Positions 60,121 to 61,577 of a stretch of 64,000 nucleotides of DNA are shown here, one piece after another. The notes under the pieces were generated by a model that was not told the DNA's origin, made no database searches, and saw only the letters and a program-made list of their open reading frames with translations. The DNA is from Gemmatimonadota bacterium (GTDB taxonomy: Bacteria > Gemmatimonadota > Gemmatimonadetes > Palauibacterales > Palauibacteraceae), in contig OZ220691.1 of NCBI GenBank assembly GCA_965116475.1, forward strand, positions 849,093 to 913,092, written 5' to 3'. The position numbers and the translations under genes were made by a program. How positions within the stretch are numbered: the first letter of the stretch is position 1; the number at the start of each line of letters is the position of its first letter.

Positions 60121-61272
60121 GTGGCGAGTGGAGATGGGACGCACGGGGGCGGCACGCTCCTGCTGGGCACGACGAAAGGCGCCTTCCTGGCGCGGCCGCG
60201 CGGCGGGGGCGGAGCGGTCGACGGCGGTGGAAACGGCGACGGGGACGGCGGGGGGTGGGAGCTGGACGGCCCCCACTTCCCGGGGGAAGAGGTCTACGCG
60301 ATGGCGTACGACGACCGGGCCGGCCGGTCGCGCCTGTGGGCGGCGCCGCACAGTCCCTTCTGGGGGACGACGCTGCGCTTCTCGGACGACTTCGGGGCAA
60401 GCTGGTCCGGGAAGGCGGAGCGTCCGGTGCGGTTTCCCGAGGATTCCGGCCTGTCCCTCAAGCGCATCTGGCAGATCCAGCCGGGGTCGGCCCGCGAACC
60501 GGATGTGATCCGGCTGGGCGTGGAGCCCGCCTGCCTGTTCATCTCGCACGACGCGGGGGAGAAGTGGGAGGCGGTGGACGGGCTGCTGAACCACCCGCAC
60601 CGCGAGCGGTGGCAGCCGGGGGCCGGCGGGCTCTGCCTGCATACCATCGTCACGGACGGCGAGCCGGGCGGGCGCGCGACGATCGCCATCTCCGCCGCGG
60701 GGGCGTACCGCAGCGACGATGGCGGGGCGAGCTGGGCGGCGCGCAACAAGGGGGTGCGCGCGGAGTTCCTGCCGGACAAGCACCCGGAGTTCGGCCAGTG
60801 CGTGCACAAGATCGTGCACCACCCGTCGAACCCGGACCGGCTCTTCCTGCAGAACCACTGGGGACTGTACCGCAGCGACGACTGGGGCGATTCGTGGACG
60901 GACATCGCCAACGGCGTCCCGTCCGACTTCGGCTTCGCGATGGCGATGCACCCGGCCGACGCCGACACGGTCTACATCGTCCCGCTCGAATCGGACGGCT
61001 TCCGTTGTACGCCCGAGGCGAAGCTGCGCGTCTACCGGACCCGGGACGGCGGCGCGAGCTGGGAGGCGCTGACCGAAGGACTTCCGCAGCGGAACGCGTA
61101 CGAAACCGTGCTGCGCGACGCGCTCGCCACGCTGGCCCCCGGGCAGGTGTTCTTCGGCACCCGCAGCGGCAAGGTGTACGCCTCCCGCGACGACGGGACG
61201 ACGTGGGGGCTGGTGTGCGAGGGCCTCCCGCCGGTGGTCTGCGTGAAGGCCTGCGCCCCCCGGCCCGCCTGA
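60121..61272 (+). CDS. cytoplasmic BNR/Asp-box beta-propeller protein (sialidase/glycosidase-like fold, no signal peptide)
   Basis: Asp-box repeats SDDFGASW, SHDAGEKW, SDDGGASW, SDDWGDSW, TRDGGASW and SRDDGTTW. 383 aa. Confidence 0.7.
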   Translation: MASGDGTHGGGTLLLGTTKGAFLARPRGGGGAVDGGGNGDGDGGGWELDGPHFPGEEVYAMAYDDRAGRSRLWAAPHSPFWGTTLRFSDDFGASWSGKAERPVRFPEDSGLSLKRIWQIQPGSAREPDVIRLGVEPACLFISHDAGEKWEAVDGLLNHPHRERWQPGAGGLCLHTIVTDGEPGGRATIAISAAGAYRSDDGGASWAARNKGVRAEFLPDKHPEFGQCVHKIVHHPSNPDRLFLQNHWGLYRSDDWGDSWTDIANGVPSDFGFAMAMHPADADTVYIVPLESDGFRCTPEAKLRVYRTRDGGASWEALTEGLPQRNAYETVLRDALATLAPGQVFFGTRSGKVYASRDDGTTWGLVCEGLPPVVCVKACAPRPA

Positions 61273-61577
61273 TGCCCGCCGGGACGGCTGCCACCGGCCT
61301 GGTGCGCGTGACGCTGCCGGCCGCGCTGACGGAGTTCACGGGCGGGCGGTCCTCGGTCGACGTCCCCGGCGCACCCGCCCCGGTCGGCGACATCCTGGCC
61401 GCACTCGGGGCCGCCCACCCCGGCGTCCGCGACCGCCTGATCACGGAGCGGGGCCGCCTGCGGCCTCACGTGAACATCTTCGTGGACGGCGAGAACATCC
61501 GCTTCCTCAGCGGCCTCGACACCCCCGCCAAGGACGGCGCCGAAGTCGTCGTCCTCCCCGCCATAAGCGGCGGCTGA
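61272..61577 (+). CDS. MoaD/ThiS-family ubiquitin-like protein with C-terminal Gly-Gly
   Basis: 101 aa, ending ...VVVLPAISGG, with a beta-grasp pattern. ATG overlaps the stop of the BNR gene (TGATG). Confidence 0.7.
   Translation: MPAGTAATGLVRVTLPAALTEFTGGRSSVDVPGAPAPVGDILAALGAAHPGVRDRLITERGRLRPHVNIFVDGENIRFLSGLDTPAKDGAEVVVLPAISGG

Follow-up and report, generated by a model that had tools for sequence, protein, structure and literature searches.

A conserved pairing of a cytoplasmic Asp-box β-propeller with a sulfur-carrier-type β-grasp protein, a candidate carrier–acceptor module

In a stretch of 64,000 nucleotides (nt) from a bacterium of the family Palauibacteraceae (Gemmatimonadota; assembly GCA_965116475.1, contig OZ220691.1), hereafter the window, the gene of a β-propeller protein with Asp-boxes overlaps the gene of a small β-grasp protein that ends in Gly-Gly (GG). 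The pairing is deeply conserved, far beyond chance, and ranges through many bacterial phyla and archaea, from Pseudomonas to Thermoplasmatota. The small protein is a carrier of the standard type, and the propeller is a new partner for it. Sulfur-carrier proteins are prokaryotic relatives of ubiquitin, each known one being defined by its partner (MoaE, ThiG, CysM or the tRNA thiolases), and the genes of GG carriers commonly adjoin that of the sulfur-acceptor enzyme (MoaE, ThiG or CysM). By analogy with MoaD–MoaE, ThiS–ThiG and CysO–CysM, the pair may constitute a sulfur carrier and its acceptor enzyme, with the E1 usually encoded in trans, a reading to which we assign a probability of roughly 0.45. 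A new and widespread partner with an unrelated fold would imply either a new sulfur-incorporation reaction with its product or a new route of ubiquitin-like protein (Ubl) processing. No description of the pair was found in the searchable literature; the surveys of β-grasp proteins and Ubls (PMC1949818, PMC1779556, PMC2948915), that of Iyer et al. (2006) among them, do not mention a propeller partner.

The 1-nt overlap between the propeller stop codon and the start of the 101-residue gene was pointed out in an earlier note on this DNA (the original prediction); it is present in the sequence (cgccTGATGccc) and suggests that the two genes are translationally coupled (Table 1). The G+C content at third codon positions is 0.93 in the propeller gene and 0.94 in the small gene, in DNA of 71% G+C, which indicates that both open reading frames (ORFs) are coding. 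Upstream lies a divergent DUF72 gene and downstream a convergent Phd/YefM antitoxin gene, so that the pair is a stand-alone bicistron; a promoter and terminator scan of the locus gave only minus-strand matches, which lie upstream of the two genes and tell nothing about them. The Gly-Gly codons directly precede the stop codon, so that the GG would be free at the C terminus with no need of processing. The closest relatives of the window belong to the sponge-associated Gemmatimonadota genus Candidatus Palauibacter, and its propeller shares 93% identity with a protein of 'Ca. Palauibacter irciniicola'.

The original prediction proposed co-occurrence of the two genes as a check, and it was borne out. 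A species-level scan with one genome per species gave at least 594 loci with relatives, the best 80 of which (58–93% identity) were examined. The small gene is found on the same strand, downstream of the propeller gene, in 76 of these 80 loci, or in 76 of the 77 evaluable ones, three of the four negatives being contig ends. The phyla labelled in this set are Gemmatimonadota, Acidobacteriota, Myxococcota, Eisenbacteria, Verrucomicrobiota and Planctomycetota. Among the 76 junctions, 27 are overlaps of 1 or 4 nt and 20 have a gap of 0–8 nt (47 of 76 together), and a further 13 show larger overlaps with an uncertain start. Searches of plasmids and chromids by tblastn added further lineages. The gene order of the window also occurs in Arthrobacter and Nonomuraea, and the reverse order, carrier first, in Mitsuaria, R. 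solanacearum, P. aeruginosa, B. multivorans, C. metallidurans CH34 and Chondrinema (Bacteroidota). The pair is present in Thermoplasmatota archaea as well, with the carrier gene in front and 1–11 nt between the two, at loci that sit among clearly archaeal genes (S6e, eIF2-gamma, Pelota). Chance adjacency is ruled out by the 76 of 77 loci, the reversed order and the fusions described below. One locus of the set (L001, VYDD01000480.1) is labelled 'Gammaproteobacteria bacterium'; since its propeller shares 84% identity with that of Palauibacter and its neighbouring genes are syntenic, this metagenome-assembled genome (MAG) is probably mis-binned or mislabelled.

At least two lineages have fused the pair into one chain, with the GG kept at the junction. 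Single chains of the form ThiS–GG–linker–propeller make up four archaeal clusters (P0145, P0274, P0275 and P0276; mutual identity 69–76%) that are Thermoplasmatota-like, with the junctions ...VSGG-ASDVRKG, ...VAGG-SDVKKG, ...VAGG-STDVKKG and ...VAGG-ATGAGVKKG; a fusion locus is L098 (1158–2561), and P0271 and P0272 are close relatives that are unfused. P0189, from a 1.49-Mb NCBI contig, is an independent fusion. Apparent fusions of the order propeller-then-ThiS (P0177, P0218, P0233, P0252, P0255 and P0259) were rejected as frameshift artefacts with Arg/Ala/Pro-rich out-of-frame stretches. Reversed gene order combined with recurrent fusion is a classic sign of physical cooperation between two proteins. 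Natural carrier–GG–partner fusions are likewise found in M. tuberculosis, as MoaX, and in D. radiodurans, as a MoaD–MoaE fusion (PMC4326299, PMC8832034); MoaX needs cleavage after the GG to be active (PMC4326299).

Profile and structure-database comparisons give solid support for a β-grasp fold of the small ORF, the lack of which the original prediction had named as a possible refutation. The protein scores 52.6 bits against Pfam ThiS (PF02597, cut-off 22.5), with residues 13–101 on profile positions 1–76 of 76, 66.7 bits against NCBIfam SAMP1 (NF041918, cut-off 60) and a marginal 49.8 bits against TIGR01687 (cut-off 49.5). Its nearest solved relatives are the CysO proteins of Amycolatopsis (4N6E_B, E 1.7e-14) and M. 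tuberculosis (3DWG_C, E 1.4e-13), followed by a Thermus MoaD-related protein and then SAMP1 proteins, in alignments that span the full small protein. For the homologous N-domain of fusion P0145, AlphaFold2 (AF2) predicts strands and helices in the order of a β-grasp fold. A hidden Markov model (HMM) of the propeller-linked small proteins scores both CysO sequences at 78 bits and the proteobacterial propeller-linked partners at 52.8–60 bits; judged by these scores, the small protein is an ordinary member of the CysO/SAMP1 group and no special clade. An E. coli MoaD sequence, not taken from a database record, gave no match to this HMM.

A GG-stop end is present in 66 of the 77 small-protein homologues, and in the remaining 11 the GG is internal and followed by a tail, of 2–3 residues in five and longer, or a fusion, in six. 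The reversed-order partners (proteobacterial, Bacteroidota and archaeal) end in SGG or AGG, for example QALSGG or SVAGG. Carriers that extend past the GG occur in L071 (7201–8298), L013, L025, L055, L072, L077 and L097. That of L071 reads through to 365 residues, with a region in which Walker-A and ABC-signature motifs can be recognised by eye, and the tails of the others are 10–32 residues long. These extended carriers are either artefacts of assembly or read-through, or carriers that need C-terminal processing.

The propeller is, on profile and model comparisons, a cytoplasmic, single-domain, seven-bladed Asp-box (BNR) β-propeller of the 3B7F family, in keeping with the 383-residue protein lacking a signal peptide that had been described at first. 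It scores 51.9 bits against Pfam Sortilin-Vps10 (cut-off 33) and 33.8 bits against BNR (cut-off 27). Six Asp-boxes occupy residues 88–95, 142–149, 198–205, 252–259, 307–314 and 355–362. No signal peptide is present, and the conserved first β-strand starts at residue 12, where it aligns with the start of 3B7F. The profile match to this Protein Data Bank (PDB) entry has an E-value of 1.7e-91, and the AF2 model (predicted local distance difference test score (pLDDT) 83, predicted template modelling score (pTM) 0.86) superposes on it in Foldseek with a template modelling (TM) score of 0.84–0.87 and 34% identity. After 3B7F, the model comes structurally closest to single halves of GH74 xyloglucanases and to Ycf48, DAIP and sortilin. 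Blade 1 carries, where its Asp-box would sit, a low-complexity insertion that is predicted to be disordered (pLDDT below 50 at residues 29–43) and is specific to the Palauibacter clade, its columns being gaps in distant homologues. Clustered at 50% identity, the orthologous family amounts to ~660 clusters (E up to 1e-30).

The crystallised member, 3B7F (Reut_B4987 / YP_299179.1, Ralstonia eutropha JMP134), likewise consists of one seven-bladed Asp-box propeller, in which the invariant residues described below are found. This structural-genomics entry was deposited as a 'putative glycosyl hydrolase with BNR repeats' and has been listed as seven-bladed and 'function not known' (PMC2716378). When the 3B7F protein was searched against the plasmid collection, the best matches had at most 40% identity and its own locus was not among them. 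Because the module is small and self-contained, includes this crystallised member and is found in species amenable to experiment (P. aeruginosa, R. solanacearum, C. metallidurans), it is directly testable. The P. aeruginosa member of the propeller family is presumably PA1356, to judge from gene order. The sole literature match for PA1355/PA1356 is a transcriptome paper in which PA1356 was apparently taken as a colonisation and adhesion factor (PMC11538994).

Other identities for the propeller were considered and rejected. The widespread database label 'exo-alpha-sialidase' is probably wrong. Compared with GH33 sialidases, the protein has seven blades rather than six and is predicted to be cytoplasmic; it has no BNR_2 (PF13088) match at E up to 1 and no conserved FRIP-type Arg, R104 not being conserved and 3B7F having no equivalent of it. 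GH74 xyloglucanases consist of two tandem seven-bladed propellers (~750 residues) with the active site in a cleft, as against a single propeller of 383 residues here, and the alignment covers only one half of the enzyme (TM normalised to the target ~0.3). An identity as Ycf48/HCF136, implied by the label COG4447, is contradicted by scores of 15.1 against a cut-off of 27 (PF14870) and 14.3 against 326 (NF010237); the COG4447 papers concern a different, Ycf48-like subfamily linked to DUF1302, DUF1329 and RND exporters. The sortilin Vps10 domain and Ycf48/HCF136 share the Asp-box propeller fold (Foldseek E ~1e-9 to 1e-10), but they are ten-bladed or extracytoplasmic or lumenal, and have no sulfur-carrier partner. 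In the peptide complexes of sortilin and Ycf48, the bound tail is the C-terminal one. Such complexes are recorded in the PDB titles of 4PO7 (sortilin:neurotensin) and 5OJR (Ycf48 with a D1 peptide), and by analogy they may serve as a precedent for tail binding by the Asp-box propeller fold.

An alignment of 92 propeller sequences, which includes 3B7F and proteobacterial, actinobacterial and Bacteroidota members down to ~33% identity, defines nine strictly invariant non-structural residues (K19, W164, H174, E223, H229, Q244, H246, R295 and R332) and five near-invariant ones (H158, R161, N245, R251 and H277). By the strand order of the model, every one of these residues sits in a D-to-A loop, in a B-to-C loop or where an inner strand starts, from which we infer that they lie on the top face around the central channel, as a putative active or binding site.

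On the carrier–acceptor reading, the two genes would form a self-contained, translationally coupled module. The GG C terminus of the small protein would be adenylated and then converted to a thiocarboxylate by an E1–rhodanese of the MoeB/MoeZ type, usually encoded elsewhere and, in some relatives, in the same operon. The propeller would bind the carrier physically as its dedicated partner, most likely as the acceptor enzyme. The flexible GG-thiocarboxylate tail would enter the conserved His/Glu/Arg/Lys pocket of the top face, possibly a metal site, and the propeller would use the carrier thiocarboxylate as sulfide donor for a cytoplasmic substrate. The scheme would work as in MoaD–MoaE, ThiS–ThiG and CysO–CysM with a wholly different partner fold. 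We regard it as a serious possibility, at somewhat worse than even odds, that the propeller represents a new class of sulfur-carrier-dependent enzyme, the first with a β-propeller fold and possibly a 3-His/Glu metalloenzyme, which either makes a sulfur metabolite or is a JAMM-independent Ubl hydrolase.

The comparison with known systems bears on this reading. As in the pair here, the GG β-grasp carrier gene of MoaD–MoaE adjoins that of a dedicated partner, often overlapping it, with the E1 (MoeB/MoeZ) in trans; here, however, the partner is a seven-bladed Asp-box propeller rather than a MoaE fold. CysO, of the actinobacterial CysO–CysM–Mec+ system and also of 2-thiosugar biosynthesis, supplies the solved sequences nearest to the small protein, whereas the pair has a propeller for its partner and no linked pyridoxal phosphate-dependent CysM or JAMM (Mec+). 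Identity with the CysO–CysM–Mec+ pathway was rejected, as CysM and JAMM genes do not recur in the neighbourhoods.

The original prediction rightly stated that no E1 or JAMM gene lies nearby: ThiF/E1, JAB/JAMM, rhodanese, MoaE and CysM domains were not found among the ~48 window ORFs scanned with Pfam (the window ORFs at 615–1085, 9053–9802, ~40.1–41.8 kb and 47269–50406 lie outside that scan), nor within 10 kb on either side in a syntenic complete 3.4-Mb Palauibacter genome. Its premise that GG proteins normally pair with an E1 or a JAMM protease is not well supported, as carriers just as commonly adjoin the acceptor enzyme with the E1 elsewhere; in M. tuberculosis, a single E1, MoeZR, acts in trans on CysO as well as on MoaD (PMC3227635). 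In three Gemmatimonadaceae loci (MAGs L017, L031 and L036), a ThiF+rhodanese E1 of 383–386 residues follows the small gene on the same strand after 3–18 nt, giving a three-gene operon of propeller, carrier and E1, and the E1 of these loci matches the MoeZR-type E1–rhodanese activation of the CysO system (PMC3227635). An E1-like gene lies within 5 kb in two further loci. No MoaE, CysM or JAMM gene was found around the L036 operon, and no E2-like, JAB/JAMM or CysM gene recurs in the related neighbourhoods in BLAST clusters or the Pfam census.

These E1 genes also bear on the suggestion, made at first, that the propeller is a substrate or targeting partner of a ubiquitin-like small protein. The partnership proved real and conserved, and the substrate or targeting part is not well supported. 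SAMP1 and TtuB act both as sulfur carriers and as protein modifiers, and on this model the small protein would be a SAMP/TtuB-like modifier with the propeller as its preferred target (for example at Lys19) or as an adaptor that selects targets. The invariant Lys19 in a GTxKG motif would suit such a role, as would the conserved GG terminus and the score above the SAMP1 cut-off; SAMP1 (Haloferax) and TtuB (Thermus) belong to the same HMM family, end in GG, and have an archaeal parallel in the Thermoplasmatota pair, but no UbaA or JAMM is linked to the pair. Conjugation is nevertheless quite unlikely: an E2 or JAMM is not associated with the pair and an E1 only rarely, the linked E1s are rhodanese-fused and of the sulfur-transfer type, the other invariant residues (three His, Glu, Gln and two Arg) look less like a plain acceptor surface than like a site for catalysis or for a ligand, and N-terminal fusion is typical of carrier–synthase pairs such as MoaX. 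The linked genes of prokaryotic Ub-like conjugation operons (E1–E2–JAB; Iyer et al. 2006) were found neither in the scanned window ORFs nor in the related neighbourhoods. The carrier–acceptor reading fits better than ubiquitin-like targeting because of the CysO similarity, the rhodanese-type E1, the invariant polar, His-rich site and the lack of E2 and JAMM.

The same invariant site admits another activity, in which the propeller would be a hydrolase on the carrier C terminus, a functional analogue of JAMM/Mec+, with the sulfur-accepting synthase encoded elsewhere; it could release an adduct (carrier–cysteine), trim post-GG residues or cleave a fused precursor. Three invariant His and one Glu resemble, in sequence, a Zn-hydrolase site, and the post-GG tails of 11 of 77 carriers and the N-terminal fusions in several lineages would need cleavage, with no JAMM linked. 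Asp-box propellers are mostly hydrolases (PMC2716378), and JAMM enzymes cleave MoaD–MoaE fusions (PMC8832034). We consider this unlikely, since the GG-stop is already present in 86% of the carriers, which need no trimming, a carrier and a recycling hydrolase without a synthase would be an odd minimal module, and the L036 operon of propeller, carrier and E1 offers no other candidate acceptor.

No conserved third gene accompanies the pair. In an all-against-all BLAST comparison of 4302 flanking ORFs, nothing was common to more than 7 of the 80 loci, and in a Pfam census of 184 flanking ORFs no family occurred in more than 4 loci; small recurrent clusters (GMC oxidoreductase, amidohydrolase, GatB and LigD) were rejected as partners, reflecting lineage synteny only. 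A MoaE gene was seen only near the Chondrinema pair and in none of the scanned window ORFs or other loci, and the pair was accordingly rejected as a molybdopterin synthase. On the Chondrinema litorale plasmid (L086, 1416–6002), the pair stands beside genes for a cysteine desulfurase, SufU, XdhC and a MoaE that lacks its own MoaD; this one case hints at a connection with sulfur mobilisation or the molybdenum cofactor. This neighbourhood would suit a looser relationship, in which the small protein is a general MoaD/CysO protein or a non-catalytic β-grasp subunit and the propeller is merely co-regulated with it or serves it as a chaperone or structural partner, no sulfur being passed to a substrate bound by the propeller. 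Such a role would agree with a small protein that forms no clade separate from CysO and reaches the cut-off of the TIGR01687 'MoaD family', and with the propellers that have no adjoining carrier. It is less probable again than conjugation: the linkage is kept through order reversal, two domains of life and repeated fusions, more than 90 neighbourhoods are without MoaE or CysM, and the invariant polar site points to a specific activity.

Several observations weigh against the carrier–acceptor reading. To our knowledge, no thiocarboxylate-dependent enzyme has a propeller fold. No E1 was found in the scanned window ORFs or in most loci. The post-GG tails of 11 of 77 carriers would require a protease, and none is encoded nearby. 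One of the evaluable loci (L079) truly lacks the small gene, and propellers stand without an adjoining carrier in two Streptomyces and three Rhodobacterales loci; such propellers retain the same invariant residues. The partner in Nonomuraea gerenzanensis (L088, 5991–6305) ends in ...LPALA-stop, without GG, the sole such case seen. The top-face placement of the invariant residues follows from the usual topology rules of propellers and not from coordinates. In the AF2 model of the natural fusion P0145, which has a confident propeller and β-grasp N-domain (pTM 0.79), the tail AVSGG is disordered (pLDDT below 50), and the model gives no support to a docking interface, though it does not refute one either.

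Table 1 Features of the propeller–carrier locus in the window and E1 genes of related loci (rows that name a locus are numbered within that locus)
Feature	Position	Strand	Basis
Shine-Dalgarno-like GAGGGGA, 6 nt 5' of the propeller GTG	60108..60114	+	Sequence; inferred role
Propeller gene, 383 residues	60121..61272	+	ORF; GTG start (inferred), the first in-frame start after a stop
Span of invariant residues, putative active/binding site	60175..61116	+	92-sequence alignment
Gly/Asp-rich low-complexity insertion, residues 27–45, GGGGAVDGGGNGDGDGGG	60199..60255	+	Blade 1, where the Asp-box would sit
Six Asp-boxes SxDxGxxW, one per blade, blades 2–7	60382..61206	+	Translation, Pfam BNR, strand pattern of the model
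TGATG junction, 1-nt overlap	61270..61274	+	TGA 61270–61272, ATG 61272–61274
ThiS/MoaD-superfamily β-grasp gene, CysO/SAMP1 (TIGR01687) type, 101 residues	61272..61577	+	ORF with ATG start, HMMs
ggc ggc (Gly-Gly) then TGA	61569..61577	+	Sequence; small protein ends ...PAISGG-TGA
ThiF+rhodanese E1 gene, L017	7402–8550
ThiF+rhodanese E1 gene, L031	~7408–8562
ThiF+rhodanese E1 gene, L036	7418–8575

Some neighbouring genes were seen in single lineages. A cysteinyl-tRNA synthetase-like gene comes after the archaeal pair (L095/L096, 6197–7420), and a YbaK/EbsC family gene comes after the P. aeruginosa pair (L085, 6089–6565). YbaK proteins are Cys-tRNA(Pro) deacylases; both followers thus relate to cysteine, which may be a coincidence. 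In Rhodobacter sp. CZR27 (L087, 2268–5795), a propeller homologue that has no carrier beside it is transcribed divergently from egtB and egtD, genes of ergothioneine synthesis. Propeller and carrier are separated in Blastocatellia and Pyrinomonadales by an inserted ORF of ~240 residues (L035 7114–7830, L072 7187–7906 and L080 7123–7828); it has two internal repeats and a hydrophobic N terminus and looks, by eye, like a secreted tandem YciI-like protein.

The pair in the window is surrounded by toxin–antitoxin genes at 57680–58219 (−), 61596–61841 (−), 62020–62223 (+) and 62154–62426 (+), a set made up of a PIN-domain gene, the Phd/YefM antitoxin gene, and HicB-like and HicA genes. They look like recent insertions, since the Palauibacter genome L081, otherwise syntenic, does not have them, and its small gene is followed at a distance of 8 nt by an ADH_zinc gene. 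The window also encodes a second, unrelated protein with Asp-boxes (1103 residues; 27645–30956, +), which matches Sortilin-Vps10, BNR and BNR_2 and adjoins the NAD(P) transhydrogenase genes pntA/pntB (24603–27533), and large FG-GAP/ASPIC proteins are encoded at 17047–23318.

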